64,000 nucleotides of DNA from Candidatus Omnitrophota bacterium (GCA_021735655.1 JAIPGM010000003.1:1-64000), one strand, 5' to 3'. Shown: positions 39,449-64,000, numbered from the stretch's first letter. Notes: generated by a model not told the origin, from the sequence alone. Translations and numbers: made by a program.

Positions 39449-40111
39449 GTGAAAACAATTGTATTAGTTCCGGCAAAACTTAAAAGTGACAGAGTTCCTT
39501 TTAAAAATATAAAACAGTTAGGTGGAGTTCCTTTAGTCAATTATACCATGCGTACTTTAAATAAACTTTCAGACATTAATGATATTGTTGTTTTTGCCTC
39601 AGAGCCTTCCATATGCGAGTATATACAGCGCGGATTAAAATATACATTCCTGGAGCGTCCGACAGAGCTGGATACTCAAGATACAAAAATACAGGATATT
39701 ATAAGAGAGTTTTTAAACAGAAGTGATGCCGATATAGTTGTCCTAGTGCATATTACTTCACCATTTTTGCAGGCTGAAACAATCTCTGACTGCATAAAAA
39801 AGGTTCATTCTGGTCAGTATCATACAGCTTTCACTGCATATGAAGTTAGAAAATTCTGTTGGTTTCGCGATAAACCGCTTAACTATTCTTTAGATAAACC
39901 TACACCACGCACTCAGGATATAAACCCGGTAGTTGTAGAGCAGGCTAGTTTATATGTATTTAGGAGAGAGGTTTTTGAAAAAACAGGCCAGCGGATTTGC
40001 TCTAAGCCTTATATTAAATATATTGATCATTTCGAGGGCCATGATATTGATACTCCGGAAGACTTTAGGGTTGCAGAATTGATTGTTAATACAGGTCTCT
40101 TTGCAATATAG
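39449..40111 (+). CDS. cytidylyltransferase (CMP-sugar synthetase / SpsF-like family)
   Basis: GTG start. IVLVPAKLKSDRVPFKN motif. Confidence 0.65.
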   Translation: MKTIVLVPAKLKSDRVPFKNIKQLGGVPLVNYTMRTLNKLSDINDIVVFASEPSICEYIQRGLKYTFLERPTELDTQDTKIQDIIREFLNRSDADIVVLVHITSPFLQAETISDCIKKVHSGQYHTAFTAYEVRKFCWFRDKPLNYSLDKPTPRTQDINPVVVEQASLYVFRREVFEKTGQRICSKPYIKYIDHFEGHDIDTPEDFRVAELIVNTGLFAI

Positions 40112-40122
40112 GATGTAATTAA

Positions 40123-41262
40123 ATGGATCAAGAAACAATTTTTAAGAAAATTTACAATGTCGAACTTAACCAGGATAAGTATGACATTGTAATTGGTAAA
40201 GGTTTACTTGAAACTGCTGTTTTAGAAGCCTTAGAGAAACGGACTAAAAATAAGAATGTTGTTTTTGTCTTTGATGTATTTTTTCAAGATAGAAGCAATG
40301 CTTTTATAGATTTTTTATCTAAGGCTGGCTACAAAGTTTACCCATATTATATGGTAGCTGGCAAGCATAATAAAACTATAAGTGAGGCAATAAAAATATA
40401 CGAAATTCTTGAGGCTAACAGTCTATCTAGAGACTCAACTATAGTAGCTTTAGGAGGTGGTGTTCTTGGCGATTTAGCTGGATTCGTAGCAAGCACATAT
40501 CATCGCGGGATGAAGCTTATAAATATACCGACCACCCTTACGGCCATGATTGACAGTAGCATTGGAGGCAAGGTCGCTATAAATTTCAGAAAGACTATTA
40601 ATGCCATAGGAAATTACTATCATCCTATAGCAAATGTTATTGATTTTAAATTTATTAGTACATTACCTCAACGTGACTTTAAGGCTGGACTGGCTGAGAT
40701 AATAAAATGTGCAATTATTAACGATAAAGAACTGTTTGATTATCTTAAATCTAATAGCCAGAAGATTCTTGACCGGGATGAAGATTCTTTATTCAATATC
40801 ATGTGTCGAGCCATAGAGATTAAACTTGTTCATGTATCAGGGGATGTGAAGGAGAAGAATGAGAGACTCAAGCTCAATTACGGCCACACCTTAGGACATT
40901 CCATAGAGATTTCGACCGATGTCTTAGAGGAGATTTATCGCCATGGAGAGGGGGTGTCTCTTGGCATGGTTGCTGCAGCATTTTTGGCAAGAAAATATTT
41001 TGGACAAGGTCAAGATATCTTAGATGCTCATGAGGAGATTCTTAACCAGTATGGCCTTCCAACCCGAGTTCATGCAAAAGATATTGGTTTTGAATATAAG
41101 AGTTTGATTGAAGAATGTATGCGAAATGTTCATAAAGATAAAAAGAAAAAGGATAACAAACTCAGATTTATTCTTCCTGATGAAATTGGTAAATGCCAGG
41201 TCTACGATCGTGTGGCAGATGATGCTATCAGGGAGGCATTTGTTTATCTTATAAAGGAGTGA
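40123..41262 (+). CDS. 3-dehydroquinate synthase-like sugar phosphate cyclase / Fe-ADH superfamily protein
   Basis: LGGGVLGDLAGFVASTYHRGMKLINIPTTL and HSIE/HG metal-ligand motifs. Confidence 0.65.
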   Translation: MDQETIFKKIYNVELNQDKYDIVIGKGLLETAVLEALEKRTKNKNVVFVFDVFFQDRSNAFIDFLSKAGYKVYPYYMVAGKHNKTISEAIKIYEILEANSLSRDSTIVALGGGVLGDLAGFVASTYHRGMKLINIPTTLTAMIDSSIGGKVAINFRKTINAIGNYYHPIANVIDFKFISTLPQRDFKAGLAEIIKCAIINDKELFDYLKSNSQKILDRDEDSLFNIMCRAIEIKLVHVSGDVKEKNERLKLNYGHTLGHSIEISTDVLEEIYRHGEGVSLGMVAAAFLARKYFGQGQDILDAHEEILNQYGLPTRVHAKDIGFEYKSLIEECMRNVHKDKKKKDNKLRFILPDEIGKCQVYDRVADDAIREAFVYLIKE

Positions 41263-41263
41263 T

Positions 41264-42025
41264 ATGAAAGAAAAAAAATCTTTAGAAAGAAAAACTTGTA
41301 TTATAACTGGATCTGGTAAGGGAATTGGAAGAGCAGCCGCAGAGCTTTTTTATAATCATGGGGCTAACTTGGCATTGATTACCAGAGATAAACAAGACTT
41401 GATATCCTTAAGGGACGATGTCGGATTTGACGATGAACGAATTTTTCTAAGCCAGGGAGACGTCTCTGATGAGGAAACGGTTAAAAGATTCATACAAGAA
41501 ACTATAGGAAAATTTAAAAAAATAGATGTTCTTATTAATAATGCCGGTATACGTTTCAGGAAAGATTTTTTAGACACCACGACAGAGGAGTGGGATCAAG
41601 TAATTAATAATAACCTCAATAGCACATATCTTTTTTCTAGGGAAGCAGGGCGAAATATGGTTTCAAGAAAAGAGGGCAAAATTGTTAATATTGTATCGAT
41701 TGTAGGTACGCTTGGATTGCCTCAGCTTTCCGCATACGGAGCATCAAAAGGAGGAGTAATCACGCTTACGAAATGCTTAGCTTTAGAGTGGGCCAAATGC
41801 AATATTAATGTTAACGCTATTGCCCCAGGATTTTGCGAAACATCGTATGTAGAAAAGTTTAGAAAAAAAGAAGAACTATATAAATTTACTATAGAAAGGA
41901 CGCCGCAGAAAAAATGGGGAACTTCTCTTGACATAGCAGAAGCCTGTCTTTTCTTATCCACAGAAGCATCTAAGTATATTACTGGTGAAGTGTTAAATGT
42001 TGATGGTGGTTGGAGTGCTTGGTAA
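41264..42025 (+). CDS. short-chain dehydrogenase/reductase (FabG-like SDR)
   Basis: ITGSGKGIGRAAA, NNAG, YGASKGGV. Ends DGGWSAW. Confidence 0.8.
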   Translation: MKEKKSLERKTCIITGSGKGIGRAAAELFYNHGANLALITRDKQDLISLRDDVGFDDERIFLSQGDVSDEETVKRFIQETIGKFKKIDVLINNAGIRFRKDFLDTTTEEWDQVINNNLNSTYLFSREAGRNMVSRKEGKIVNIVSIVGTLGLPQLSAYGASKGGVITLTKCLALEWAKCNINVNAIAPGFCETSYVEKFRKKEELYKFTIERTPQKKWGTSLDIAEACLFLSTEASKYITGEVLNVDGGWSAW

Positions 42026-42091: not shown

Positions 42092-44260
42092 TTGAGACAA
42101 ATATTTAAAATGGGAATGAGGGGTGAGGAGAAAAATAATCAGAGAAGTTATTATATACAAAATCTTACAGTCGCTCCTTGGCTAGTATCGATAGCTCCTT
42201 ATCTAATGCGTAATTTTTTCAAGGGGAATAGAAATATCAAAGTTTATTTTATCGATGCTTCAATATGTGGTTTATGGCTGGCGCGCTTCATGTTATTATT
42301 TTTTGGTCTCAAGCTTAATGAGTTGAAATTTCGTTTGGTTGATGTCCATGATGACGATGGTGTTCTTCTGCATCTACGAGTAGATTATTTTGATTCTACG
42401 GTTGTGCAAAAATATATATTGGAAAGGCCTATTTTCTCGGAGCTGTTTTTAAACAAGCCTGCTAAAAGTAGAATAGCTATGTTTTTGGCAAAACGCATTT
42501 TTGCCTCTGCTAGTAAGCCTGAATCGACATTAGATAGAGCAGTTTATCTCATTCAAGTAGTTAAGCAAAAGTCAAAAGAGTATGTAGCTGAATGCTTGCA
42601 GCCTGTTTTGTTTTTGGACAGAAGGTTGTGGATGAATGAAATTAAAAGATATGCGTGCAAGCATAATATATCTGTTATTGGCGCTAAAAGTTTTAATATC
42701 AATTTTAAATATTTTTTATTAGGGTTTTTGGGACCAAAAATAAATATTTTAAAAAATATCTATTTTTGGTTTTTAAGAATAAAAAGAAGTTTTTGCAGTA
42801 AGTATGGCTGGATTGTTAAAAATAAGAAATCAATTTCAATCGTTATCAGACATAAAAAAAATAATGCAGATAATAGCATTATTGGTAGCCAGGTAAAGCT
42901 TGGGGTTAACTATTATGGTCATCTTAATCTTAATAATCCAGAACTGTATTCGGATTTATTTTTTTTACAGCAGTCAGATTTATCAGGAAAAGATATTTTA
43001 ATCGTATCTAATATGCTGTTTGATCCCATTGATGATAAAAAATTAATGGAGATTGCCAAGCATGATATGAATGTAGTTGCGCTTTCAGCAAAGGCAACTA
43101 ATAGTTTTTCCGTGCCGTTTTTTTACCATTGGCCGAGTCGTAGCTCAAATTCATCGTTTAAGTTTATCTCAAAAAATGCTTATAATGGCGATGAGCGCAG
43201 ATGGTTTCTGCGGCAGATGAGAGACTACTATAAGGATTGTAATTATTGGCAGGATTTTTTTGCAAAGCATAATGTTAAGGCATTTATGACTTGGTATAAG
43301 TATGATGCTTCTCACTGTGTTGTTGCCGATGCCATGCGGAATGTTGGAGGAATAATGGCTGTTTATCAACGCGCCTTTGAGGAATTTCCTTCTTGCAAGA
43401 CAACGATTGCGTCTGATGTTGTGTTTGGTTTTTCGCCTGCAAATGCTGAGATTGAACGTCTTTCCGGTTCACAGATTTCCTACCATATTTCTACAGGTTA
43501 TTATGCTGACTACAGGCTACCTTTGCTAAAGGCGCATGCACAGAGGGTGCGCACATCTCTACAGCAAAGAGGAGCTAAACAAATTATTGCTTATTTTGAT
43601 GAAAATTCCGGAGCTGATTCTCGTTGGCATAATGGGCATGAATCTACAATAGCTAATTATGATTTTTTACTTAAAAAAGTTTTATCTCAAAAATGGTTTG
43701 GTCTTATTTTAAAACCTAAGGTTCCCTCAACGTTAAGATTGAGGCTGGGGCTAACGGCAGACTTACTTAAGGAAGCAGAAGCAACTGGAAGGTGTTTTGT
43801 CTTTGAGGCAGGGGCCTTGCATAGTGCCTACCCTCCCGCTATAGCTGCTCTAGCTTCTGATATCGCCATCCACGGTCATCTGTATGCTGCAACAGCTGGG
43901 CTTGAATCAGCGCTTGCAGGAGTCCCTACTCTTTTACTTGATCGTGAAGGCTGGTCGATTAGTAAATTATACCATTTGGGTTTAGGACGGGTAGTTTTTA
44001 CTGATTGGCAAAGTCTTTGGAAAACATATATTGAATATTGGCAGGATTCCAGGAAGGTGCCAGGCTTCGGCGATTGGTCTTCGATGATAAATGATTTAGA
44101 TCCTTTCAGAGATGGCCGAGCAGCAGAAAGAATAGGTACATACTTGAAGTGGTTGCTTGACGGCTTTAAGCAAGGGCTTAAACGAGAAGATATTATGGCT
44201 TCTGCCGCAGAGCGTTATGCTAGGATTTGGGGAAGTGATAAAATAGCTACACTGGGGTAG
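42092..44260 (+). CDS. large hypothetical protein (722 aa), GT-B-like C-terminal region; candidate glycosyltransferase
   Basis: The C-terminal AIAALASDIAIHGHLYAATAGLESALAGVPTLLLD resembles the GT-B nucleotide-binding half. Confidence 0.3.
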   Translation: MRQIFKMGMRGEEKNNQRSYYIQNLTVAPWLVSIAPYLMRNFFKGNRNIKVYFIDASICGLWLARFMLLFFGLKLNELKFRLVDVHDDDGVLLHLRVDYFDSTVVQKYILERPIFSELFLNKPAKSRIAMFLAKRIFASASKPESTLDRAVYLIQVVKQKSKEYVAECLQPVLFLDRRLWMNEIKRYACKHNISVIGAKSFNINFKYFLLGFLGPKINILKNIYFWFLRIKRSFCSKYGWIVKNKKSISIVIRHKKNNADNSIIGSQVKLGVNYYGHLNLNNPELYSDLFFLQQSDLSGKDILIVSNMLFDPIDDKKLMEIAKHDMNVVALSAKATNSFSVPFFYHWPSRSSNSSFKFISKNAYNGDERRWFLRQMRDYYKDCNYWQDFFAKHNVKAFMTWYKYDASHCVVADAMRNVGGIMAVYQRAFEEFPSCKTTIASDVVFGFSPANAEIERLSGSQISYHISTGYYADYRLPLLKAHAQRVRTSLQQRGAKQIIAYFDENSGADSRWHNGHESTIANYDFLLKKVLSQKWFGLILKPKVPSTLRLRLGLTADLLKEAEATGRCFVFEAGALHSAYPPAIAALASDIAIHGHLYAATAGLESALAGVPTLLLDREGWSISKLYHLGLGRVVFTDWQSLWKTYIEYWQDSRKVPGFGDWSSMINDLDPFRDGRAAERIGTYLKWLLDGFKQGLKREDIMASAAERYARIWGSDKIATLG

Positions 44261-46028: not shown

Positions 46029-47828
46029 ATGAGAATAATTTGTTTTTTAAATCCAAAATTAATTAGCAGTCACAAAATTCCCGTTTTTAATAAAAATCGT
46101 TATATTATTTCCTATGATGAGTTTAAACCGCGGGAAGCTATTACTAGAGATAGCAACCTTAAACAAATTATAATTTTTCCAATAACAAATCAAGAGCGGG
46201 CCACTTGCGAAAGAGAGTATATCGCTAATGTTTCAAAATTATCCGAGATTTTTGATTCATTGGAGTGGTGGGCGAATCCAATTTCTGAGAAAAATGAACA
46301 TTCTTCTATACAGTATAAAGATTTGTGTTTATTTTTTTCTTTAATAAAAACTATAGATAAACATAGGGATGAACGATGCGACATTTTGGTTTATGGGGAC
46401 GGTAGTATTTATAATATTCTGAGAAAGCATTATTCGAACAAGGGGATACAGGTAGTATTCATAGGTAGCAAACTCTTTAGAAACATCCAAAGTTTTATAT
46501 ACCAGATACTAAAAATCGTATTATTATTTTTTAAAATTATTTCACGCAAGTTATTTTTGAGGAAAATAGCCAGTAAACTAAGGAAACAATTAAGTAACAA
46601 AAGCTGTTATTATGTAATAAGGACATGGCTTTATAATCAACCAGATGCTAATTTCAGAAATGATGCTTTTTTTGGAAGATTGCCTGAATACGCAGCGAAT
46701 CGAGGCAATAAAGTATTACTGCTAGGTGGAATTATTGATAATTATCGAAAGATTTTGCAAAAAATATTAAAGTCTGATGGTAAAACTATTGTTATTCCGG
46801 AAGAGTATTTTTTAAAATATTCAGATATTTTTAAGTTATTCGTTTATTTTAAATTTAAAATCAGGAAGCTTGATAGCAAAATTATTTTTAAGGGAATTGA
46901 TGTAACAGATTACTATTCTCAAGAGATTTTTAAAGGATTTTGGCAAGACTCATATATTTATAATATTATTCGTTATATGATTGCAAAGCGTTTTGGCGAA
47001 ACTGTTAATTTTAATGTTTTCCTGCAGACTTTTGAAAATTATGCTTGGGAAAAAGTGACCATTAAAGGGATTAAGGCGGCAAGGAGCAATTGTAGGGTAT
47101 TAGGATTTCAGCATGCCTTCGTGTCAAGGAATTCATTTAAGTATTTTCCTGGACAACAGGAATTAGACAGGATTCCTTTACCAGATAAAATTATTACTAT
47201 GGGTGAGAGGACAAAAGAGATTTTGCAAAATTACGGAGCTTATCGCAAAGAACAAATCGTAGTTGGTTGTGCTTTACGCCAACAGTATCTCGATGATTTG
47301 TCTTTTATAGAGAGGCGGCGTTGCAATAAAATACTAGTACCATTGACAATGGTTACTCAGGAGTCAATCAGAATTATTAAGTTTCTTTGCGACTCTAATA
47401 TTTCTAAGACAAATAAAAATATTGTTATTAGGCCTCATCCAGCACGGGATTTTAAATCAGTAAAAGAAAAGATTCCATTTGAAATACCCAGTAATTTTAT
47501 AATTAATAATTGTAAGACGATGAAGGAAGAGTTATCTGATGCAGGTATGGTTTTGTATACTTGGTCAACGATTTCTGCCGAAGCATTAAGATTGGGGTTG
47601 CCGGTAATTTATCTGGATATATTAAGGCCACTTTATGTTGATCCTTTATTTGAATGTGATGCTCTTAAAAGAAAGGTTAGTGAGGCTGATGAGCTTGTGC
47701 CGGCAGTTGACAGCCTTTATGGGATAAGTAATGATGATTTTGAAATTGAACGGAAGATGGCCAGTGAGTATAGTAAAAGTTATTTTTATCCAGTAACAGA
47801 AAGTAATTTAGCACATTTTTTTTCGTAA
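46029..47828 (+). CDS. large hypothetical protein (599 aa), GT-B-like; candidate glycosyltransferase/polymerase
   Basis: C-terminal IVIRPHPARD...DAGMVLYTWSTISAEALRLGLPVIYLD resembles a GT-B donor-binding domain. Confidence 0.3.
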   Translation: MRIICFLNPKLISSHKIPVFNKNRYIISYDEFKPREAITRDSNLKQIIIFPITNQERATCEREYIANVSKLSEIFDSLEWWANPISEKNEHSSIQYKDLCLFFSLIKTIDKHRDERCDILVYGDGSIYNILRKHYSNKGIQVVFIGSKLFRNIQSFIYQILKIVLLFFKIISRKLFLRKIASKLRKQLSNKSCYYVIRTWLYNQPDANFRNDAFFGRLPEYAANRGNKVLLLGGIIDNYRKILQKILKSDGKTIVIPEEYFLKYSDIFKLFVYFKFKIRKLDSKIIFKGIDVTDYYSQEIFKGFWQDSYIYNIIRYMIAKRFGETVNFNVFLQTFENYAWEKVTIKGIKAARSNCRVLGFQHAFVSRNSFKYFPGQQELDRIPLPDKIITMGERTKEILQNYGAYRKEQIVVGCALRQQYLDDLSFIERRRCNKILVPLTMVTQESIRIIKFLCDSNISKTNKNIVIRPHPARDFKSVKEKIPFEIPSNFIINNCKTMKEELSDAGMVLYTWSTISAEALRLGLPVIYLDILRPLYVDPLFECDALKRKVSEADELVPAVDSLYGISNDDFEIERKMASEYSKSYFYPVTESNLAHFFS

Positions 47829-53343: not shown

Positions 53344-53480
53344 CTTATGACAAGAAACAATTATAGGAGTTATATATTTTTATTTGATGTTTATTGTTTT
53401 ATTGTTGCCGCTATATATGTAGGGTGGAGAATATTTATTTTTCTAAAAAGATATTTTTAGGATACTGTTTAATCAATAAA

Positions 53481-55127
53481 ATGTTATCGAAAAAGACAAA
53501 TTCCTTTAGTAGCTTTTCAAACCTGCTTCATTTACCTAGTTTTGCATTGATCATAGGCTATATAATTTATTGGTTTGAGATATATTTTTTTAAAAAAGGC
53601 CAAGGTTTAAGCTCACCATTAGCTACCTGTTTGCTTGCCGTTCTTGCTATATATTTATTTTTCGGACAAAGAAAGCTATTTTTCTCAGCAGTTGATTGGT
53701 GCATTAAGGAATATAAACAAGAGAGTAAAATAAGAAAAGCCGTAATATTGCTGGCTTGTTGTATTGTCTTTTTAATACTGTTGACTACATTTTTTGCACT
53801 TTTACTACCGCCGCATCTAGCTCAGGAGTTTGATGCCTTGAATTATCATTTGACGCTTCCTCGGCAGCATTTGATTTTAGGTTCCTTTTCGCATATTCAC
53901 TGGTCTGCGGCCGATTTATTTCCTTTGCCGATACAGTTTGCGCTGGCTCCCTATTGGCTAATTAAGGAGATTCCTAGTAAGTTTATCCATATATTGTTTG
54001 TTTTTGGGTTATTAGCGATTTCTTTAAATCTTATAAGGTGTTTTAGCAACAACAATTTTTTGTCTTTATTTATCGGATTAATGGCTATCTTGGGTTCTCA
54101 TAATGTGGGCATACAAATTCCGATTCTGATGCTTGATATTGTTATATGTTATCTATTTTTAGCTAGTATTGATAGTTTTTTAGAGGGAAAAATTATCCTC
54201 GGGTCTATAGAGTTATCTTTCTTTATATGGTCAAAGTCTTTTGTCCCATTTCAAATGTTGGCAATTTTAACTATAATTTTTCTGATCGGATTACTTTTGA
54301 AAAAGCTTGGGGCCAATAATAGAAGTTGGGTTTTTGAAAAAACTTCTTACGATAAGTTACTCTCCAGAAAATATCTTAAGAAGAGTGTATTGTATCTATT
54401 TCTATCTAGTATGCTTGTCGGCGGACCTTTTATGGCTAAGTCGCTACTTAAGTCAGGAACGCCCTTGTTTCCTTTTTCTCCCGGTCTTCTAAAGACATCT
54501 TCAGTTGACCAAAAAACACCGCATTGGCGATCAATCGTAGCTTCTTCAGAAAGGCATTTTTCCACCAAAGATGCTTATGGATCAGGAAGGTCAATATTAG
54601 AATTCTTACGGCATCTATGGCTTATAGCTGTGCCCGAAGATCAGACTACAAATCGTTACGACTACCCCCTCGGTTTGCCTTATTTACTTTTTCTTGCCCC
54701 TTTTATTTACTTTGTTTTTATATCTTTTAAAAAGAAACAGCTTGTTTTGTTACCTTTATTTGCAGTTAGTTTTTGGATGCTTTGGTGGTTTGGTTCCCAG
54801 CAAGCCAGGTTTCTTTATATTCCTTTATTGATTATTTTTATCAGTGTGGCGGCTAAAATAAAACAACCAAGAAATTCATTTATTTACGCCTTAGTTATCG
54901 CATTACTCTTTAATTTTATATCTATTTTTAGAGCTCACTCAGGTGATCTCTTCAAGCCTTCAGTAAAGGTGTTGCGAACCAAAGACAAACAGCTGATAGA
55001 AATGAATAAAAAGTATCGTGATAGATCTAGTTTGAGTCCAGTAGTTTTAGATTATTATGATGTTGCTTATGCCAATTTTCCTTTAAAGATTGTTGGCAAA
55101 AACCGTTTTTGGGTTTTAGAGGAGTAG
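53481..55127 (+). CDS. polytopic membrane protein, GT-C-like glycosyltransferase candidate
   Basis: At least 12 hydrophobic segments. Start uncertain: the ORF is open from 53394. Confidence 0.35.
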   Translation: MLSKKTNSFSSFSNLLHLPSFALIIGYIIYWFEIYFFKKGQGLSSPLATCLLAVLAIYLFFGQRKLFFSAVDWCIKEYKQESKIRKAVILLACCIVFLILLTTFFALLLPPHLAQEFDALNYHLTLPRQHLILGSFSHIHWSAADLFPLPIQFALAPYWLIKEIPSKFIHILFVFGLLAISLNLIRCFSNNNFLSLFIGLMAILGSHNVGIQIPILMLDIVICYLFLASIDSFLEGKIILGSIELSFFIWSKSFVPFQMLAILTIIFLIGLLLKKLGANNRSWVFEKTSYDKLLSRKYLKKSVLYLFLSSMLVGGPFMAKSLLKSGTPLFPFSPGLLKTSSVDQKTPHWRSIVASSERHFSTKDAYGSGRSILEFLRHLWLIAVPEDQTTNRYDYPLGLPYLLFLAPFIYFVFISFKKKQLVLLPLFAVSFWMLWWFGSQQARFLYIPLLIIFISVAAKIKQPRNSFIYALVIALLFNFISIFRAHSGDLFKPSVKVLRTKDKQLIEMNKKYRDRSSLSPVVLDYYDVAYANFPLKIVGKNRFWVLEE

Positions 55128-55990: not shown

Positions 55991-56776
55991 ATGAAAGCAG
56001 TAATATTATGTGGAGGAAGAGGGACAAGAATTAGAGATGCCTCAGAAGTTTTACCTAAGTCAATGCTTCCGGTGGGCAATATGCCCTTGCTTTGGCATAT
56101 AATGAAAATTTACGCTCATTATGGGATAAAAGATTTCGTTTTATGCCTTGGTTATAAAGGGTGGGCGATAAAAGAGTTTTTTTTAAATTATCAAGCTAAG
56201 GTTTTTGATGTAGTGTTGAAGTTAGATAAAGAAAATTCAATAATTTATGGCCAAAACCATCATGAAAAGTTAGATTGGAAAATCTCGCTTGTAGAAACAG
56301 GCGAAGAATCACAAACCGGAGCAAGAATTTGGAATGCACGCAAATATTTAGAAGATTGTGATATGTTTTGTGTAACTTATGGTGACGGTGTTGGCAATAT
56401 CGACATCAAATCTTTAATAGAAGTTCATAAAAAATCGGGTTTACTTGGCACAATAACTGGAGTTCATCCTTCAGGCCGTTTTGGCGAAATAGAGACAAAA
56501 GGTAAGATTATTTCTTCTTTCGCAGAGAAGCCAAATGTAAGCTTTGGTTCTTATAATGGCGGGTTTATGGTTTTTGATAGAAAAGTTTTAGGAAAATATT
56601 TTAGATCTGGAAAAGATTTGATATTGGAGGCAGAAACTTTGCCTAATATGGTGAATGACAAGCAGTTAGGAATATATGAGCATAATGGTTTTTGGCAATG
56701 TGTTGACACTAATCGGGAATTAGAAATATTGGAGGGTTTATGGAATTCTTCTAATCCTCCTTGGAAAGTATGGTGA
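55991..56776 (+). CDS. rfbF: glucose-1-phosphate cytidylyltransferase
   Basis: MKAVILCGGRGTRI...LWHIMKIYAHYGIKDF...LWNSSNPPWKVW, near-colinear with RfbF/DdhA. Confidence 0.9.
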   Translation: MKAVILCGGRGTRIRDASEVLPKSMLPVGNMPLLWHIMKIYAHYGIKDFVLCLGYKGWAIKEFFLNYQAKVFDVVLKLDKENSIIYGQNHHEKLDWKISLVETGEESQTGARIWNARKYLEDCDMFCVTYGDGVGNIDIKSLIEVHKKSGLLGTITGVHPSGRFGEIETKGKIISSFAEKPNVSFGSYNGGFMVFDRKVLGKYFRSGKDLILEAETLPNMVNDKQLGIYEHNGFWQCVDTNRELEILEGLWNSSNPPWKVW

Positions 56777-57753
56777 ATACGCAAGTAAAATTTTGGAAAG
56801 GCAAAAGAGTCTTGATTACGGGCTATGAAGGATTCTTAGGATCTAATCTTGCTAAAGTTCTGCTAAACTTTGGTGCAAAGATATCGGGTTTGGATATTTT
56901 GACTAGAAGAAAAGATACAATCCTTACTCAAAAAGAATTAGCCAAGATAAAGATAATTAAAGGAAATGTTGATAATTTATCTTTAGTAAAGAGGATTTTA
57001 AGGAATGATAAAATAGAGGTTATTTTTCATCTCGCTGCAGAGGCTTTAGTTGGCGAGTGTCTAAAAAGACCAGTCAAAGGATTTTCGACCAATATTAAGG
57101 GAACTTGGAATATTTTAGAAGCTTGGCGGCAAACAAAAATAGCCAAAGCAATAGTTGTAGCTTCAAGCGATAAAGCCTACGGAAGTCATTCTAAGCTTCC
57201 TTATAAAGAAGATAGTGCGCTTTGCGGTTTGCATCCCTATGATGTTTCGAAGTCATGTGCTGACTTAATTGCTCATGCTTATCATAATACCTATGGAGCG
57301 CCGGTAGTGATAACTCGCTGTGGTAACATTTTTGGTCCGGGAGACTTCAATTTTTCCAGAATTGTTCCTGAAACCTTACGTTCGGTAATTAGAAATAAAA
57401 CTTTGGTTATTCGTAGTGATGGAAAGTTCACTCGTGATTATGTATATGTTGATGATATTGTAGCCGGATATATAAACTTAGCTCAAAAATCTAAAAAGTT
57501 AAAACTATTTGGCCAGGCTTTTAATTTTAGCGCCGAGCAGCCGCTTTCAGTTTTAGCTTTGGTAAAGTTGATTTATAAATTAGCTGACAGAAGATCTAAC
57601 TATAAAATCTTAAAACAGGCGAAATATGAAATTAAGCATCAATATCTTTCATCTAGGAAGGCTGCTAGAGTTCTTGGCTGGAAACCAAAGCTGAAGCTAG
57701 ATAAGGCTTTGGAGAAAACTTACCAGTGGTATAAAGATAATCTAAGCAAATGA
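56770..57753 (+). CDS. rfbG: CDP-glucose 4,6-dehydratase
   Basis: FWKGKRVLITGYEGFLGS, YDVSKSCAD. ATG 56770 overlaps the rfbF stop; an alternative in-frame TTG lies at 56761. Confidence 0.85.
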   Translation: MVNTQVKFWKGKRVLITGYEGFLGSNLAKVLLNFGAKISGLDILTRRKDTILTQKELAKIKIIKGNVDNLSLVKRILRNDKIEVIFHLAAEALVGECLKRPVKGFSTNIKGTWNILEAWRQTKIAKAIVVASSDKAYGSHSKLPYKEDSALCGLHPYDVSKSCADLIAHAYHNTYGAPVVITRCGNIFGPGDFNFSRIVPETLRSVIRNKTLVIRSDGKFTRDYVYVDDIVAGYINLAQKSKKLKLFGQAFNFSAEQPLSVLALVKLIYKLADRRSNYKILKQAKYEIKHQYLSSRKAARVLGWKPKLKLDKALEKTYQWYKDNLSK

Positions 57754-58490
57754 AGATAAATTTTTTAGGAACAAATGGATGGTACGATACTGATACCGGA
57801 AATACTCTTTGTATTCTTATTGAAACTAAAAAAGAATATATTATTCTCGATGCCGGAGGCGGTTTTTACAAAATTGGTCAATATATAAAGAAAAAGAAGC
57901 CAATTTATCTTTTCTTAAGCCATTTTCATCTCGACCACATTATTGGACTTCATACCTTATTGCTAGGTAACTTTTCTCAGGGGATTAAGCTTTACGGACC
58001 ACCGGGAGTAAAGAAATACTTATCACAAATAGTAAATTATCCTTATACAGCGCCAATTTCTAAGTTAAAAACAAAGGTTATCGTTAATCAAATTAAAAAA
58101 GAAGTACGTTTTCCTTTTAAGGTTGAGTTTGGCAAGCTGCTTCATCCTTCATTATGTTACGGCTATCGGTTTAATTTGGAAGGCAAAACAATTGTTTATT
58201 GCACCGATACCGGAATTTGCAGTAATTTATATAAGTTAGCTAGGGATTCTGATTTATTTATTACTGAATGCTCGGCGACTGCCGGAAAAAAGGAAAAGGA
58301 TTGGCCTCATTTAACGGCTCAGGATGCAGCTAAGGTTGCTAAGAAATCCCAAGTAAAAAAATTATTTTTAGTTCATTTTAATGCTTCCTTATTTAAAACT
58401 GAAAAGCAACGCAATATGGCTAAGGCACAAGCAAAAGAGATATTTGGGAATACTTTTGCGGCCAGTGACGGACAAGTAGTTAATTTATAA
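57750..58490 (+). CDS. MBL-fold metallo-hydrolase
   Basis: HFHLDHIIGL (HxHxDH) motif. 246 aa. Confidence 0.6.
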   Translation: MKINFLGTNGWYDTDTGNTLCILIETKKEYIILDAGGGFYKIGQYIKKKKPIYLFLSHFHLDHIIGLHTLLLGNFSQGIKLYGPPGVKKYLSQIVNYPYTAPISKLKTKVIVNQIKKEVRFPFKVEFGKLLHPSLCYGYRFNLEGKTIVYCTDTGICSNLYKLARDSDLFITECSATAGKKEKDWPHLTAQDAAKVAKKSQVKKLFLVHFNASLFKTEKQRNMAKAQAKEIFGNTFAASDGQVVNL

Positions 58491-58501
58491 AGCTTTAAAT
58501 A

Positions 58502-59386
58502 ATGAAGAAAACACCCGTAGCTATAATTGGTACTGGAAATATTGGTACTGATCTTTTAATTAAGATCCAGCGTTCGTCAATTTTAGAATGTGTTCTTTTT
58601 ACTGGCCGGCGTCTAGATTCACGGGGCATGCAAAGAGCAAGGTTGCTTGGCGTACCCATTTCCGATCAATCAATAAAAGCCATTCAGAGAAATCATAATA
58701 TTTGCGATATAGTCTTTGACGCAACCTCAGCTAAAGCTCATCAATATCACGCACCAATTTTAAAGAAATTAGGTAAGATCGCTATAGACTTAACGCCTTC
58801 AAAAGTTGGCAAGATGTGTATACCGGTTATTAACATGAACCAATGTTTAGATGAAAATAATGTGAATTTGGTTACTTGCGGCGGTCAAGCAGCTATTCCA
58901 ATAGCTCATGCAATTATGAGGGTGCATCCGGAGACCGAATATATAGAAGTTGTAGCAAGTATTGCTTCTAAATCCGCGGGCCTTGGGACTAGAGATAATA
59001 TTGATGAGTTTACTCAGACTACCGGTGATGCTATTTTAAATTTTACCGGAGTTCCTCGGGCAAAGGCAATTATTATTTTAAATCCGGCTGAACCACCAGT
59101 TTTAATGCACAATACCATTTATGCCCAGATTACTAAGCCAAAGATCAAAAAAATGACTGCGGCAATAAATGATATTGTTAACAAGGTTCAAAAATATGTT
59201 CCTGGTTATAAAGTAACTGTGGGTCCAGTGGCCGAGGGCAATCGGGTAACGGTTATGATTGAGGTGGTGGGTTTGGGCGATTTTCTTCCTAAATATTCCG
59301 GCAACTTAGATATTATTACCTGCGCTGCTGTGAATATTGCGGAAAGTTTTGCTCAAAAAAAGATAAGAGGCAAAGTGCCTTTATGA
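58502..59386 (+). CDS. acetaldehyde dehydrogenase (acetylating), DmpF/MhpF family
   Basis: VAIIGTGNIGTDLLIKI, VTCGGQAAIP, ASIASKSAGLGTRDNIDEFT, near-colinear with MhpF. Confidence 0.8.
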   Translation: MKKTPVAIIGTGNIGTDLLIKIQRSSILECVLFTGRRLDSRGMQRARLLGVPISDQSIKAIQRNHNICDIVFDATSAKAHQYHAPILKKLGKIAIDLTPSKVGKMCIPVINMNQCLDENNVNLVTCGGQAAIPIAHAIMRVHPETEYIEVVASIASKSAGLGTRDNIDEFTQTTGDAILNFTGVPRAKAIIILNPAEPPVLMHNTIYAQITKPKIKKMTAAINDIVNKVQKYVPGYKVTVGPVAEGNRVTVMIEVVGLGDFLPKYSGNLDIITCAAVNIAESFAQKKIRGKVPL

Positions 59387-60435
59387 AAAAAAGGAAAAAG
59401 ATTTTATTCTTTGATTCTACTTTGCGCGATGGGTCTCATGCAATTAGCCATCAGCTGAAAGCTTCCCAGATTAAGCAATATTGTAAGTATGCAGATGACT
59501 CAGGGTTACATACAATTATTGTCGGCCATGGAAATGGTCTAAGTGCCTCATCTTTGCAGGTAGGGTTGTCGGCTCTTTCTGATACAGAGATGATTGTAAC
59601 TGCTCGCAAGAATCTTAAAGCTACGAAATTGGGAGTTTTTTTGATTCCTGGTTTTGGTACAATTAAGGATGATCTTGCTCCGGCAATTGATCAAGGGGTT
59701 GATTTAGTTTGTGTTGCTTCTCATTGTACCGAGGCTAATGTTACTCGTCAACATATCGAATACGTAAGAAAACGAGGCAAAGCCGCTTATGGGGTTTTAA
59801 TGATGCAGCATATGGCTTCAGCCGAACGTTTATCCGAAGAAGCTCACAAAATGCAAGATTATGGCGCATTGGGTGTTATTTTAATGGATTCTGCCGGAGC
59901 TTCTCATCCGGAGATGGTTTCAGAGCGGGTTGGCCTACTAGTTAAGAATCTTGATTGTCAAGTTGGATTCCATGCTCATAATAATTTAGGTTTAGCGATT
60001 GCTAATTCATACAGTGCAATTAAAGCTGGGGCTACAATTATTGATGGAACAGTTAGGGGTTTTGGGGCTGGGGCCGGGAATTGTCAAATTGAAGTTTTAG
60101 CAGGATTGCTCTATAAAATTGGCGTAAAGACAGGTCTAGATTTATATAAATTGATGGATGTTGGTGATGAAGTAGTAACTAAATTGAGTGAGAAATCTCA
60201 AGGTGTGAGCTCAATTAGCCTAATTAGCGGAATAACTGGGGTTTTTTCGGGTTTTTCTAAACATGTTGAGAAAGCAGCTAAGCGATTTGGCGTTGATCCG
60301 CGAGATATTTTTATGGAGTTAGGAAAAAGAAAAATGGTAGCCGGGCAGGAAGATTATATTGTTGACGTGGCAATGTATTTAGCTCAGAAGAAAACTGGCC
60401 AGAAAGACAGCTATCAGATAGAATCACTTTCTTAA
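59383..60435 (+). CDS. 4-hydroxy-2-oxovalerate aldolase-like (DmpG/MhpE family, DRE-TIM)
   Basis: DSTLRDGSHAI, GFHAHNNLGLAIANS, MVAGQEDYIVDVA, matching the HOA aldolase family. Confidence 0.8.
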   Translation: MKKRKKILFFDSTLRDGSHAISHQLKASQIKQYCKYADDSGLHTIIVGHGNGLSASSLQVGLSALSDTEMIVTARKNLKATKLGVFLIPGFGTIKDDLAPAIDQGVDLVCVASHCTEANVTRQHIEYVRKRGKAAYGVLMMQHMASAERLSEEAHKMQDYGALGVILMDSAGASHPEMVSERVGLLVKNLDCQVGFHAHNNLGLAIANSYSAIKAGATIIDGTVRGFGAGAGNCQIEVLAGLLYKIGVKTGLDLYKLMDVGDEVVTKLSEKSQGVSSISLISGITGVFSGFSKHVEKAAKRFGVDPRDIFMELGKRKMVAGQEDYIVDVAMYLAQKKTGQKDSYQIESLS

Positions 60436-60448
60436 TAAGGAGTAGACA

Positions 60449-62230
60449 ATGAGAGTGGCCGATTACATTTTTAATTTTTTAGTCGATAAAGGCGTAAGAA
60501 ATGTTTTTATGGTTTCCGGCGGCCAAGCTATGTTTTTGGTTGATGCTGTTGGACGTCAAAAAGAAATAGAAGTTGTTTGTACACATCATGAACAGGCAGC
60601 TGGGATGGCAGCTGAAGCTTATGGGCGAGTAACTCAAAAATTAGGAGTAGCTTTAGTTACTGCCGGGCCGGGCAGTATGAATATTGTAAATGCGGTAGCC
60701 GGAGGCTGGACAGATTCATCACCAATGATGGTTATTTCCGGCCAATCATCTTTATCATATGTACAGTATCAAGAAGAAACTAATATTCGACAGTATGGAA
60801 TTCAAGGAATTTACATTAAGCCAATAGTTCAGAATATTACTAAGTATTTTGTTACTGTTGATGATCCAGCAAAAATTTTATTTTATCTTCAAAAAGCTTA
60901 TTATTATGCAACTACTGGGCGTCCTGGCCCGGTTTGGATCGATGTTCCGATTGATGTGCAAAAGATGGAGGTTCCCGATCGCTTATTAGAAGAGTTTGAA
61001 CCACCGCTTGAGGCTTATCTTCCCGATGAGCTAACAGATAGTGTTGAGCTGTTATTGACGACAATTTCCAAAGCTAAGCGGCCAATATTTTTAGTTGGCC
61101 AGGGTGTTCGCTTGGGCGGTGCGGTTGATCAGTTTTATCAAGTTCTTGAAAGATTAGCGATTCCGGTATTAACCTCGCGTCTGGGAATAGATTTAATTAA
61201 TAGTGATCATCGTCTTTATGTCGGTCGTCCAGGAATTTATGGTGAGCGAGCAGCTAACTTTGCAATTCAGAATGCTGATGTTATAGTGGCTGTTGGCTCG
61301 CGCTTAGCAACAGCATTAGTTGGCTATGATTCTAAAAACTTTGGTAAACAGGCTTATAAAATAGCTGTTGATATTGATAAAAAAGAGCTAAATAAGATCG
61401 GCGTTGAAATAAATTTGCGAATTCATGCTGATGTAAAAGATTTTTTTAAAGAAATCCAGCGGCAGCTAGTTTCGGTTTCAGTTGGCGATTTTAGTCAATG
61501 GATTAAACAATGTAATGATTGGAAAAAGAACTATCCGGTAGTTTTGCCGTCTTATGAGAAGGAGAAACCAGTCAATTCTTATTATTTTACTGAAAAGCTA
61601 TCTCAGGTTACACCTTCTGAGGTAATGGTTTTGGTTGATACTGGTTCTTGTTTTCATGTGGCTTGTCAGGCTTGGAAGATTAAAACCGGGCAACGTTTTC
61701 TTACTACTGGGGGTCTTTCTTCGATGGGTTATTGGGCTGCAGTTTTGGGGGTTTGCGAGGCCAACAATCGAAAGAATACGATTGTTATTACCGGTGATGG
61801 TAGCTTACAGATGAATTTACAGGAATTAGCAACAATTAAACATTACAATTTTCCGATTAAAGTTATTATTTTCAATAACAACGGTTATCTTTTAATAAGG
61901 CATACACAGAAGAACTACATGAATAGTCGTTTTTGCGGTGAAGGGCCGGATAGCGGTGTTTGGTGTCCGGATTCTTTAAGGATAGCCGAGGCCTATGGGA
62001 TTAAAGGTGTCCGCATAGATTCAGTTAAAGGGCTTAGTGAAAAAATTAAAGAAGTAATTGAATATCCCGGCCCGGTGGTTTGCGATGTAATGACTCCTGA
62101 GTGGCAATTACTTATTCCTCGAGTTTCTTCAGAAAAAAAGCCCGATGGAACATTGGTTTCAAAACCCTATGAAGATATGTACCCGTTTTTGAGTAAAAAA
62201 GAATTAAAACAAAACATGCTTTTTGAATAA
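60449..62230 (+). CDS. thiamine-diphosphate-dependent enzyme, acetolactate-synthase-like (YerE-like carboligase candidate)
   Basis: N-terminal Pyr domain (VFMVSGGQAMFLVDA), central domain, C-terminal PP domain GDGSLQMNLQEL. 593 aa. Confidence 0.75.
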   Translation: MRVADYIFNFLVDKGVRNVFMVSGGQAMFLVDAVGRQKEIEVVCTHHEQAAGMAAEAYGRVTQKLGVALVTAGPGSMNIVNAVAGGWTDSSPMMVISGQSSLSYVQYQEETNIRQYGIQGIYIKPIVQNITKYFVTVDDPAKILFYLQKAYYYATTGRPGPVWIDVPIDVQKMEVPDRLLEEFEPPLEAYLPDELTDSVELLLTTISKAKRPIFLVGQGVRLGGAVDQFYQVLERLAIPVLTSRLGIDLINSDHRLYVGRPGIYGERAANFAIQNADVIVAVGSRLATALVGYDSKNFGKQAYKIAVDIDKKELNKIGVEINLRIHADVKDFFKEIQRQLVSVSVGDFSQWIKQCNDWKKNYPVVLPSYEKEKPVNSYYFTEKLSQVTPSEVMVLVDTGSCFHVACQAWKIKTGQRFLTTGGLSSMGYWAAVLGVCEANNRKNTIVITGDGSLQMNLQELATIKHYNFPIKVIIFNNNGYLLIRHTQKNYMNSRFCGEGPDSGVWCPDSLRIAEAYGIKGVRIDSVKGLSEKIKEVIEYPGPVVCDVMTPEWQLLIPRVSSEKKPDGTLVSKPYEDMYPFLSKKELKQNMLFE

Positions 62231-63188
62231 TAAAGGACAAATTTTGATTAAGAAAAAAAACGTACTAGTTACTGGTGCTCGTGGATTCATTGGAAAAAAT
62301 ATTGTTGAACATTTCAAAGCTAACCTTTCAAACAATTATACTGTTTTTTCTCCCTATCATAATGAGTTAGAACTGCTTGATTCTCAAGTGGTTATTTCGT
62401 TTATTAAGAGTAAATCAATAGATCTTATTATTCATTGTGCTAATATTGGGGGATCACGTAAAACTGCCTACGATCAAGATCGTACTGATGTGGTATATAA
62501 AAATTTAGCGATGTTTTTTAATCTAGTCGGTGCAATGAATAAAGACACTCGAATGGTATTTTTTGGTAGCGGCGCAGAGTATGCCAGAGCCTATTATAAG
62601 CCCAAGATGAAAGAAGATTATTTCGATGAACACATACCGGAAGATAGCTACGGTTTTTCAAAATACGTATGTTCTAAGTATATAGAAAGTTCTGAGAAAA
62701 TAGTAAATTTGCGTCTTTTCGGAGTTTTTGGAAAGCACGAAGATTATGAGTTTAAATTTATATCTAATGCTATTGTTAAAAATTTATTAGGTTTACCAAT
62801 CACCATAAATCAAAATATTTATTTTGATTATTTGTATATAAACGATTTTTTAAAGATAGTTGAGTATTTTATAGATAAAATGCCTAAACAAAAGTTTTAT
62901 AACGCTGCTAGAGGCCAAACAATTGACTTGGTAACGATAGCTAAAGAAATTAATAAAGTTTCCGAAAAGCAGTCGGAGATAATTGTTAAACATGAAGGTT
63001 TGAATACCGAGTATAGTGCCGATAATTCAAGACTTTTAAAAGAAATCGGTAATTTTGACTTTACTCCTTTTGACCAAGCAATAAAGGAGTTGTATCTTTG
63101 GTATAAATCTAATTTGAATAAAATTAATAAAGCCAAAATTACCAAAGATGAATATATTAAGTATTGTCACATAGATAGCCAACAGTAA
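62223..63188 (+). CDS. NAD-dependent epimerase/reductase (extended SDR)
   Basis: VLVTGARGFIGKN and YGFSKYVCSK (YxxxK). Confidence 0.65.
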   Translation: MNNKGQILIKKKNVLVTGARGFIGKNIVEHFKANLSNNYTVFSPYHNELELLDSQVVISFIKSKSIDLIIHCANIGGSRKTAYDQDRTDVVYKNLAMFFNLVGAMNKDTRMVFFGSGAEYARAYYKPKMKEDYFDEHIPEDSYGFSKYVCSKYIESSEKIVNLRLFGVFGKHEDYEFKFISNAIVKNLLGLPITINQNIYFDYLYINDFLKIVEYFIDKMPKQKFYNAARGQTIDLVTIAKEINKVSEKQSEIIVKHEGLNTEYSADNSRLLKEIGNFDFTPFDQAIKELYLWYKSNLNKINKAKITKDEYIKYCHIDSQQ

Positions 63189-64000
63189 TGAATAACCAGA
63201 AGTTATTGCGAAAACAAATCCTTAAAAAGGTGAAGGACTTTCAAGTCAAAAGTCCAAAGTCTAAATTTGTTCCCGGCGAAACTTATATTAACTATGCTGG
63301 GCGTATTTTTGACCATGAAGAACTCATCAATTCAGTTGATGCTTCTTTAGATTTTTGGTTAACTTCTGGACGATTCGCTTGTGAGTTTGAGAAGGAGTTA
63401 GCAAGATTTTTAGGAATTAAACATTGCATGTTAACAAATTCCGGTTCTTCGGCCAATCTTTTAGCTATTTCAGCGTTAAAGTCACCGTTATTAAAGAAAC
63501 GAAGTTTGAAGGCAGGCGATGAAGTTATTACCACTGCTTGCGGATTCCCGACAACTTTAAATCCAATTTTACAAAATAATCTTGTTCCGGTTTTTGTTGA
63601 TTTGGAGTTGGGTACCTATAATATTGATGTTACTAAAATAGAGCGAGCAATTTCTAAGAAAACAAAGGCTATTTTTGTTGCTCATACCTTAGGTAACCCG
63701 GTTGAACTAGATGCAATTATGAAAATAGTTAAAAAGCATAATTTATTTTTTATCGAAGATAATTGCGACAGTCTAGGTTCTAAATATAATGATAAATATA
63801 CCGGCAGTTTTGGTCAAATTTCAACTTGTAGTTTTTATGCCAGCCATCATATCACTATGGGAGAGGGCGGAGCGGTTTTAACCAATGACCCTTTACTTCG
63901 CAAGATAATTCTTTCTTTACGCGATTGGGGCCGTGATTGTTTTTGTGAACCAGGCCGGGATAATAGTTGTGGTAAGCGGTTTTCTAAAAAGCAGGGTAAG
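63188..64000 (+). CDS. ddhC: CDP-6-deoxy-D-xylo-4-hexulose 3-dehydrase (E1, DdhC/RfbH/AscC), 3'-truncated by the window end
   Basis: SFYASHHITMGEGGAV (His replaces Lys) and RDWGRDCFCEPGRDNSCGKRF iron-sulfur Cys motif. No stop codon before the window end. Confidence 0.8.
   Translation, partial: MNNQKLLRKQILKKVKDFQVKSPKSKFVPGETYINYAGRIFDHEELINSVDASLDFWLTSGRFACEFEKELARFLGIKHCMLTNSGSSANLLAISALKSPLLKKRSLKAGDEVITTACGFPTTLNPILQNNLVPVFVDLELGTYNIDVTKIERAISKKTKAIFVAHTLGNPVELDAIMKIVKKHNLFFIEDNCDSLGSKYNDKYTGSFGQISTCSFYASHHITMGEGGAVLTNDPLLRKIILSLRDWGRDCFCEPGRDNSCGKRFSKKQGK

Follow-up and report, generated by a model that had tools for sequence, protein, structure and literature searches.

An eight-gene module in a surface-glycan locus

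The window, by which we mean the whole 64-kb stretch of DNA analysed here, comes from a Candidatus Omnitrophota bacterium (GCA_021735655.1, JAIPGM010000003.1:1-64000), sits on the parent contig logan:SRR12088349_3401 (90,288 bp) and consists of one long plus-strand array of about 57 genes with a mean GC content of 0.37. Pfam calls for the contig reveal a giant surface-glycan locus that contains rml genes, many short-chain dehydrogenases/reductases (SDRs), aminotransferases and glycosyltransferases, together with Wzy-like proteins and an initiating Bac_transf transferase. Here we are concerned with a module of eight genes that occupies the final 8 kb of the window, in which genes for a CDP-dideoxy sugar stand together with a metallo-β-lactamase (MBL)-fold hydrolase, a DmpF/DmpG-like aldolase-dehydrogenase pair and a thiamine diphosphate (ThDP)-dependent enzyme. 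A first-pass annotation, made from the sequence alone, had listed these genes and their domains; we found all eight on the plus strand at the coordinates it gave, and the family scores agree with the assigned domains. Names of the Erw series used below refer to the erwiniose cluster of Pectobacterium atrosepticum, which was partly reconstituted by Steitz et al. (2022) and comprises the ThDP enzyme ErwE, the NAD(P)H reductase ErwF, the BphJ-like ErwJ, the BphI-like ErwI and genes for CDP-4-keto-3,6-dideoxyglucose (PMC9306805). The module reads as follows:

55991..56776, plus strand: rfbF/ddhA-like glucose-1-phosphate cytidylyltransferase, 261 aa (TIGR02623, Pfam NTP_transferase)
56770..57753 (or from 56761), plus strand: rfbG/ddhB-like nucleoside diphosphate (NDP)-hexose 4,6-dehydratase, assigned as an SDR with a match to TIGR02622 and by its position after rfbF
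57750..58490, plus strand: MBL-fold binuclear-metal hydrolase, 246 aa (Pfam Lactamase_B_2)
58502..59386, plus strand: ErwJ/DmpF/BphJ-like acetylating acetaldehyde dehydrogenase, 294 aa (TIGR03215)
59383..60435, plus strand: ErwI/DmpG/BphI-like class II pyruvate aldolase with communication domain, 350 aa (TIGR03217, DmpG_comm)
60449..62230, plus strand: ErwE/YerE-like ThDP carboligase, 593 aa (three TPP domains, Pfam)
62223..63188, plus strand: ErwF/YerF-like extended SDR, 321 aa (Pfam Epimerase, 90.6 bits)
63188..64000, plus strand, cut by the window end: E1/DdhC CDP-4-keto-6-deoxyglucose 3-dehydrase (match to 3bcx)

The packing of the module is operon-like. From rfbF to E1/DdhC the successive junctions measure -7 (or -16), -4, +11, -4, +13, -8 and -1 nt, with the ThDP gene directly downstream of the DmpFG-like pair after the 13-nt gap and the SDR gene overlapping the 3' end of the ThDP gene by 8 nt. 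The genes had been described as all coupled by 4-nt overlaps; of this, the tight packing holds, whereas such overlaps occur at only two junctions and the others lie between -16 and +13 nt. Terminator-like sites are not in excess (6 found versus 5.8 expected), and the GC content at third codon positions (GC3) of the MBL, DmpF, DmpG and ThDP genes lies within one standard deviation of the mean of the 57-gene locus, both of which speak against the possibility, raised in the first-pass annotation, that the DmpFG pair and the MBL gene are a separate catabolic operon merely adjoining the sugar genes. Moreover, no hydratase, dioxygenase or other meta-cleavage gene was found in the window or its flanks by Pfam calls.

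Within the gene set for CDP-4-keto-3,6-dideoxyglucose, the ddhA-like gene and ddhC are clear and the ddhB-like gene is divergent. RfbF scores 292.8 bits against TIGR02623, just under the cut-off of 300.25 bits. The rfbG-like protein, which has 327 aa if translated from ATG at 56770 or 330 aa from TTG at 56761, is of a short, divergent type that reaches 220 bits against TIGR02622 (cut-off 278 bits), and among solved proteins it comes closest to the CDP-glucose 4,6-dehydratases 1rkx (144 bits) and 1wvg (141 bits). The full E1/DdhC protein on the parent contig has 436 aa and would end at window-equivalent position 64498; it matches Yersinia E1 (3bcx) with 524 bits, colinear over residues 4-433, and ColD with 214 bits. 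It carries His220 at the place of the aminotransferase lysine, as well as Cys193, Cys251, Cys253 and Cys261 in the spacing C-x57-C-x-C-x7-C, and we take this combination of a histidine for the pyridoxal phosphate-binding lysine with the cysteine pattern to be the E1 iron-sulfur signature.

The partner reductase E3/DdhD had been reported as not in view, and reading further along the contig did not reveal a ddhD gene: there is no Fer2, FAD_binding_6 or NAD_binding_1 call on contig positions 5889-88935 (about 83 kb). Likewise, crude motif scans, which a divergent reductase could escape, returned no plant-type [2Fe-2S] or ferredoxin-NADP+ reductase motif in the window, in its flanks on the same contig (L082 upstream and L001 downstream) or in the 78 related loci described below. 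The E1 homolog SpnQ can use the cell's general ferredoxin or flavodoxin reductases, and because of this precedent a dedicated E3 would not be strictly required, an assumption that we make for the present cluster. As for the transferase that the first-pass annotation had recommended looking for beyond position 64000, E1/DdhC is followed on the parent contig by a gene for a family 2 glycosyltransferase (GT2) of 234 aa.

Conserved arrangement and active-site residues

The 78 related loci were obtained by searching one genome per GTDB species for the window ThDP protein, and their gene content was determined by tblastn and clustering of open reading frames (ORFs). They derive from Omnitrophota, Elusimicrobiota, Firestonebacteria, Clostridia, many Patescibacteria lineages, Lentisphaerae, Verrucomicrobiota and Planctomycetota, as well as from Gamma- and Deltaproteobacteria, Aliarcobacter, Bacteroidetes and further groups. 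Aldolase genes occur in 69 and dehydrogenase genes in 65 of the 78 loci, and in 56 of them DmpF, DmpG and the ThDP gene are adjacent in that order. Among the CDP-sugar genes, rfbG-like sequences occur in 60/78 loci, ddhC in 53/78 and rfbF homologs in 47/78, and 35/78 loci hold rfbF, rfbG, ddhC, DmpF, DmpG and the ThDP gene all on one fragment. Loci that lack the aldolase or dehydrogenase are mostly cut by contig ends, the exceptions being L070, L075 and L080, and DmpFG is found in every locus that has enough upstream sequence and a ThDP enzyme at least 55% identical to the query. The DmpF-DmpG-ThDP arrangement is far beyond chance and, since the synteny is conserved over distant loci, both a chance neighbourhood and an unrelated catabolic operon are ruled out. 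The adjacency in 56/78 loci and this synteny place the DmpFG-like pair within the sugar route, as the first-pass annotation had supposed.

Other components vary. At the position of the reductase, three SDR families alternate (33, 12 and 8 loci), the window SDR belonging to the family seen in 33/78, and 41/78 loci encode a GT2 that resembles GtrB/ArnC, is about 313 aa long and has membrane segments at its C terminus (among L004-L081, for example L054 and L051). As reductases and transferases vary, product stereochemistry and mode of transfer may differ between lineages. A membrane protein of about 690 aa with tetratricopeptide (TPR)-like repeats was observed in 7 loci, and many of the GT2/TPR loci come from Patescibacteria; the GT2 and TPR membrane proteins hint at transfer of the branched sugar via polyprenyl phosphate. 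A separate observation concerns L071 (Anaerovibrio sp.) and L072 (Clostridiaceae), where DmpF-DmpG occur together with, or not far from, a ThDP enzyme that shares only 37-39% identity with that of the window, and no rfbF, rfbG or ddhC lies within 10 kb; this trio may be put to a different use.

Both members of the window pair exceed the NCBIfam cut-offs, the dehydrogenase with 399.6 bits against TIGR03215 (cut-off 282.25) and the aldolase with 383.6 bits against TIGR03217 (cut-off 286) and 94.7 bits against DmpG_comm, and each is 44% identical to its E. coli counterpart, MhpF and MhpE, respectively. The DmpF-like protein retains the segment 'TCGGQA', which we take to be the site of the DmpF catalytic cysteine.

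The active site of the aldolase was analysed in an alignment of 68 full-length cluster aldolases with DmpG (1nvm) and 8ih7. The catalytic and metal residues Arg17, Asp18, His21, His200 and His202 (DmpG numbering) are present in the window protein and invariant in all 68 cluster homologs, which answers the earlier query as to whether the pyruvate and metal ligands are kept. By contrast, two positions set the cluster aldolases apart from the catabolic controls DmpG, MhpE, HsaF (4jn6), 4lrs and 8ih7, all five of which have Leu and Tyr at the places of BphI Leu87 and Tyr290. In the cluster aldolases the Tyr290 position holds Phe (66/68) or Val (2/68) and never Tyr, and the Leu87 position holds Phe (52/68), Tyr (12/68) or His (4/68) and never Leu; the window protein has Phe at both (Leu88 and Tyr291 in DmpG numbering). 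At the equivalent of BphI Leu89 a bulky residue is retained (Ile in 56/68, Leu in 10/68). In BphI, Leu89 limits aldehyde length, and the wild-type enzyme is strictly 4S in making and cleaving the acid, with Tyr290 sterically excluding the 4R enantiomer; stereocontrol is lost in the Y290F variant, and the L87W/Y290F and L87N/Y290F variants are 4R-specific (PMC3962088). Because both positions altered in the 4R-specific variants are also replaced here, the cluster aldolases look like natural, family-wide counterparts of these engineered enzymes, and by this analogy the window aldolase is predicted to form (4R)-4-hydroxy-2-oxopentanoate. Such a residue signature would be hard to explain for a bystander aldolase.

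The ThDP enzyme scores 372.8 bits against TIGR00118, well below the cut-off of 538.35, and is far under the cut-offs of all PRK acetolactate synthase models too. Among solved proteins it is closest to JanthE (8rph; 420 bits, about 37% identity, colinear over residues 2-591), followed by PpYerE (5ahk) with 254 bits and plant acetohydroxyacid synthase with 236 bits. No ilvN-like small-subunit gene occurs among the neighbours of the ThDP gene, the next gene being the SDR. Several annotation sources label the protein 'acetolactate synthase', but the sub-cut-off TIGR00118 score and the missing ilvN neighbour exclude a biosynthetic acetolactate synthase (IlvB), and with it the case of an ilvB-ilvN pair that had been put forward as a way in which the initial proposal could fail. 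In the SDR that follows, the motifs GxxGxxG ('GARGFIG') and YxxxK ('YGFSK') are legible, and the protein, matched to a reductase role at family level only, would reduce the branch carbonyl.

A proposed route to a ten-carbon branched sugar

ErwE joins 4-hydroxy-2-oxopentanoate to a ketone analogue of the sugar, prefers the 4R form and does not accept pyruvate (PMC9306805), and acetaldehyde is not used as a donor either (PMC12247030). In the route deduced for erwiniose, ErwJ converts acetyl-CoA to acetaldehyde and ErwI combines this with pyruvate to (4R)-4-hydroxy-2-oxopentanoate; ErwE then decarboxylates the acid and transfers the C4 acyl unit thus formed to CDP-4-keto-3,6-dideoxyglucose, and ErwF reduces the branch (PMC9306805). 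Erwiniose itself is a ten-carbon branched monosaccharide (PMC8657720), a size that corresponds to a 3,6-dideoxyhexose plus a C4 branch. We consider it likely that the eight genes of the window constitute an erwiniose-type module for an acyl-branched C10 dideoxy sugar within an Omnitrophota lipopolysaccharide/glycan locus. Judged by gene content, synteny and active-site logic, membership of the module in the erwiniose type is the most likely assignment, which most likely makes it a new example of a known pathway rather than a new pathway. The first-pass annotation had expected a CDP-3,6-dideoxyhexose route in which a reductase follows a YerE-like ThDP carboligase, and this was borne out; its statement that such a route had not been described as such was wrong, the erwiniose cluster having been published in 2022 (PMC9306805).

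According to this proposal, RfbF would make CDP-glucose and, together with the RfbG-like dehydratase, provide CDP-4-keto-6-deoxyglucose, from which E1/DdhC would remove the 3-hydroxyl group to give CDP-4-keto-3,6-dideoxyglucose, presumably with electrons drawn from the general ferredoxin or flavodoxin reductases of the cell. Meanwhile, acetyl-CoA would be reduced to acetaldehyde by the DmpF-like dehydrogenase, and the DmpG-like aldolase would join acetaldehyde and pyruvate to (4R)-4-hydroxy-2-oxopentanoate. The YerE-like ThDP enzyme would then decarboxylate this acid and add the product, a 3-hydroxybutanoyl carbanion equivalent, to the CDP-sugar at its C4 ketone, the SDR would reduce the branch carbonyl to yield CDP-3,6-dideoxy-4-C-(1,3-dihydroxybutyl)hexose, an erwiniose-type C10 sugar, and the downstream GT2 would probably transfer it. 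The predicted 4R aldol product agrees with the configuration of erwiniose and with the preference of ErwE for the 4R acid, and the aldolase residues, predicted to favour 4R, lend indirect support to a predicted use of (4R)-4-hydroxy-2-oxopentanoate by the window ThDP enzyme. Gene content, synteny, family membership and active-site residues of the module are direct observations. What ErwE, ErwI and ErwJ catalyse, and which residues determine the stereochemistry of BphI, is known from the literature, whereas all catalytic steps in the Omnitrophota host, the stereochemistry of the product and the source of electrons for E1 are inferred.

Several points weigh against this assignment. No glycan structure exists for the Omnitrophota host, and orthology to ErwE, ErwF, ErwI and ErwJ is deduced from gene content only. 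The window ThDP enzyme is only about 37% identical to JanthE, the natural substrate of which is not known, and RfbF and the RfbG-like protein both fall under the NCBIfam equivalog cut-offs. E3/DdhD was not found on contig positions 5889-88935 or, by the crude motif scans, in the 78 related loci. The Phe/aromatic signature of the aldolase is read by analogy to engineered BphI variants, the reductase family varies between loci, so that the stereochemistry of the branch may differ from that of erwiniose, and the MBL gene lies inside the module and is without a role in the published erwiniose scheme.

In the MBL protein, the metal site HxHxDH, H132, D153 and H209 is invariant in 34 homologs. Its AlphaFold2 model (mean predicted local distance difference test, pLDDT, 90.7) is closest in fold to RNase Z (1y44), YhfI (6kns), ElaC (1zkp) and the PhnP-family diphosphatase 6b9v, with the arm-less 6kns and 1zkp sharing the best E-value with 1y44. 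A function as RNase Z, the tRNA 3' endonuclease, was rejected: the RNase Z models give 133-136 bits against cut-offs of 252-293, with the match in two pieces, and the protein lacks the tRNA-binding arm and is shorter than RNase Z (246 aa versus about 300 aa or more). Roles as a glyoxalase-II-type thioesterase or as a lactonase acting on lactonised 4-hydroxy-2-oxoacids are at best a distant prospect, because by fold the protein groups with the phosphodiesterases RNase Z, ElaC, YhfI, PhnP and Apyc1 and matches neither lactonases nor glyoxalase II. Nor is the protein tied to DmpFG as a partner, since homologs occur with an HpcH_HpaI aldolase (L083) and, beside rfbG, in an archaeal locus without DmpFG (L075). 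Homologs are found in only 7/78 related loci, and all three more distant ones whose surroundings were inspected (L083, L084 and L086; 53-58% identity) belong to clusters for acyl-branched CDP-sugars, where they immediately follow rfbF or rfbG. In L083 (7001-11636; Omnitrophota metagenome-assembled genome GCA_028715645.1), the 58%-identical homolog comes after rfbF and rfbG; next come a 164-aa ORF and genes for a ThDP enzyme, a haloacid dehalogenase (HAD)-type hydrolase and the HpcH_HpaI aldolase, DmpFG being absent. The MBL protein thus looks like an accessory of particular lineages that goes with the CDP-sugar part of the pathway; its modelled fold suggests that it is probably a small-molecule phosphodiesterase. 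It may be conserved in acyl-branched CDP-sugar clusters of Omnitrophota and Elusimicrobia with either aldolase type, and it may perform an unrecognised step, for example removal of a CDP-linked or cyclic-phosphate by-product. E1, in turn, may work without a dedicated E3 across related clusters. We put forward only tentatively that the published scheme is incomplete for this lineage in four respects, namely the MBL step, an E3-free E1, natural 4R aldolases and the wide spread of the module.

Two other ways of using the same enzymes had been suggested in the first-pass annotation, and neither is the best supported. In one, DmpF, with DmpG, would merely supply the ThDP enzyme with channelled acetaldehyde or a hydroxyethyl unit, and the outcome would be a two-carbon branch and a yersiniose-like C8 sugar that derives from acetyl-CoA rather than pyruvate. 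ThDP carboligases are generally able to use aldehyde donors, the window enzyme is YerE-like and DmpF-type enzymes interconvert acetyl-CoA and acetaldehyde; nevertheless, we regard this as improbable, given that ErwE takes neither acetaldehyde nor pyruvate. It would also render the aldolase superfluous, yet the aldolase is present in 69/78 loci and its pyruvate, metal and catalytic residues are invariant in 68/68 proteins. Furthermore, the residues on either side of C4 of the aldol product are both changed in a systematic manner, and therefore selection would seem to have acted on the aldol product itself.

In the other, the aldolase would add pyruvate to a sugar aldehyde and so extend the chain; we weigh it together with a reversed order of steps, in which the ThDP enzyme, like YerE, first adds an acetyl branch from pyruvate and the aldolase then extends the sugar-bound branch. 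This would result in a branched or extended sugar of similar size, and class II pyruvate aldolases tolerate various aldehydes (PMC3962088). Still, we give it even less credence than acetaldehyde delivery: for ErwE it was tested and excluded by Steitz et al., pyruvate being no donor (PMC9306805), DmpG_comm at 94.7 bits and a DmpF-like protein with 'TCGGQA' represent an architecture for channelling small aldehydes and not a CDP-sugar, and the aldehyde-length-limiting Leu89 equivalent is still bulky in the cluster aldolases. We therefore prefer free 4-hydroxy-2-oxopentanoate as the donor for the ThDP enzyme. Finally, that DmpFG and MBL are an unrelated meta-cleavage-type catabolic operon among sugar genes, or that the ThDP enzyme is a genuine acetolactate synthase, is hardly worth entertaining even though the DmpF and DmpG homologs pass equivalog cut-offs of catabolic enzymes and the 'acetolactate synthase' label is in use, because it is refuted by synteny with ThDP and CDP-sugar genes over dozens of phylogenetically distant loci and is further opposed by the want of meta-cleavage genes in window and flanks, the tight junctions, the absence of a terminator-like excess, the locus-typical GC3, the TIGR00118 score, the missing ilvN and stereo-determinant residues unlike those of all catabolic controls.

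Wider locus and comparison with known systems

Other parts of the glycan locus contain unusual gene combinations of their own. At 4681-14273 the window has a run that resembles another unusual NDP-sugar route, with a transketolase split into an N-terminal part of 279 aa and a C-terminal part of 312 aa, an SDR, two B12-binding radical S-adenosylmethionine enzymes, a GHMP kinase, a nucleotidyltransferase, an AP_endonuc_2 TIM-barrel protein and an aminotransferase; split transketolase genes also lie between rfbG and DmpF in the related loci L038 and L076. Three genes encode NeuB-type nonulosonic acid synthases (17191-19578, 20660-22423 and 29391-30434), and two of them are fusions, one of Amino_oxidase/NAD_binding_8 with NeuB (795 aa) and one of NeuB with CTP_transf_3 (587 aa). 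At 39449-42025, a CTP_transf_3 cytidylyltransferase, a 3-dehydroquinate-synthase-like protein (379 aa) and a classical SDR are consecutive, which suggests a carbocyclic or other unusual CMP-activated sugar. Three large ORFs of the glycan locus have no Pfam match (42092-44260, 722 aa; 46029-47828, 599 aa; 53394-55127, 577 aa). On the same contig, downstream of the window (L001, 14472-17013), a second, unrelated MBL-fold protein of 280 aa lies between VanZ-like and Wzy_C proteins, and this region is followed by two Phosphodiest-family proteins and a GT9 heptosyltransferase-like gene. Upstream of the window (L082, 1-6019), ATP sulfurylase, two adenosine phosphosulfate (APS) kinases, an inositol-phosphatase/CysQ-like protein and a carbamoyltransferase are encoded, and these sulfate-activation and carbamoyltransferase genes suggest sulfated or carbamoylated sugars.

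The erwiniose-type logic, in which an aldolase makes the hydroxy-keto acid that serves as donor for a YerE-like ThDP enzyme and a reductase completes the branch, is not confined to one plant pathogen. It recurs as a conserved module in a wide range of phyla, most of them uncultured, among them Omnitrophota, Elusimicrobiota, Patescibacteria, Clostridia, the Planctomycetota-Verrucomicrobiota-Chlamydiota (PVC) group and Gammaproteobacteria. Because of this spread, C10 acyl-branched dideoxy sugars become predictable from sequence where the glycans cannot be analysed and, if the proposal is true, C10 branched sugars would be common surface components far beyond Pectobacterium. The Phe/aromatic exchange of BphI Leu87 and Tyr290 would offer a simple marker by which biosynthetic, probably 4R-forming DmpG-like aldolases can be told from the catabolic 4S enzymes, to which annotation pipelines give identical names, and the signature points to natural 4R-selective aldolase-dehydrogenase pairs for biocatalysis. 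The added interest of the module lies in its breadth in uncultured phyla, in the aldolase stereo-signature and in the conserved MBL gene and missing E3.

The closest known system is the erwiniose cluster of P. atrosepticum SCRI1043, which shares the enzyme families and the retro-biosynthetic logic of the window module and for which the same C10 product size with a C4 branch is predicted. The gene order differs: in Pectobacterium it is apparently ThDP enzyme, reductase, dehydrogenase, aldolase (consecutive accessions WP_011093010-WP_011093013), in the window dehydrogenase, aldolase, ThDP enzyme, reductase. The window module, from an Omnitrophota host, further differs in its additional MBL gene, in a 4,6-dehydratase of a short, divergent type and in that no E3/DdhD was found in the roughly 83 kb examined. 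Pectobacterium is not represented among the 78 related loci, nor among the best 120 protein matches to the ThDP enzymes of the window or of Aliarcobacter (L067). The yersiniose A system of Yersinia pseudotuberculosis (YerE/YerF) uses the same acceptor, CDP-4-keto-3,6-dideoxyglucose made via DdhA, DdhB and DdhC, and the same succession of ThDP enzyme and reductase, but YerE installs a C2 branch from pyruvate and the cluster, unlike the window, is without an aldolase-dehydrogenase pair. JanthE of Janthinobacterium sp. HH01 (8rph, 8rpi and 8rpj) is a carboligase of the YerE-like class that accepts ketones and can use 4-hydroxy-2-oxovalerate as one of its donors; its ThDP motif is an unusual CDG, whereas the window enzyme has the canonical GDG.

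With the catabolic pairs DmpFG, BphIJ, MhpEF and HsaFG, the window pair shares fold, domain order, communication domain and metal and catalytic residues. It differs from them in that it would run synthetically, from acetyl-CoA and pyruvate to a 4-hydroxy-2-oxoacid, and in that the 4S-enforcing Leu87 and Tyr290 (BphI) kept by the catabolic pairs are replaced in all 68 cluster homologs. The E. coli mhpABCDFE operon illustrates the catabolic context of such an aldolase, and its meta-cleavage neighbours are not seen in the window or flanks. Lastly, the clusters for caryophyllose (Mycobacterium marinum), gastriose (M. gastri) and a C6-branched sugar of R. palustris follow the same scheme of aldolase, YerE-like ThDP enzyme and reductase acting on a CDP-deoxy-keto sugar, but with longer donors, and the M. 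marinum aldolase, mmar_2331, belongs to the aldolase/citrate-lyase family (PMC9306805). Within the Omnitrophota, locus L083 likewise pairs its ThDP enzyme with a different aldolase type, HpcH_HpaI, plus a HAD protein, and carries a homolog of the window MBL protein.

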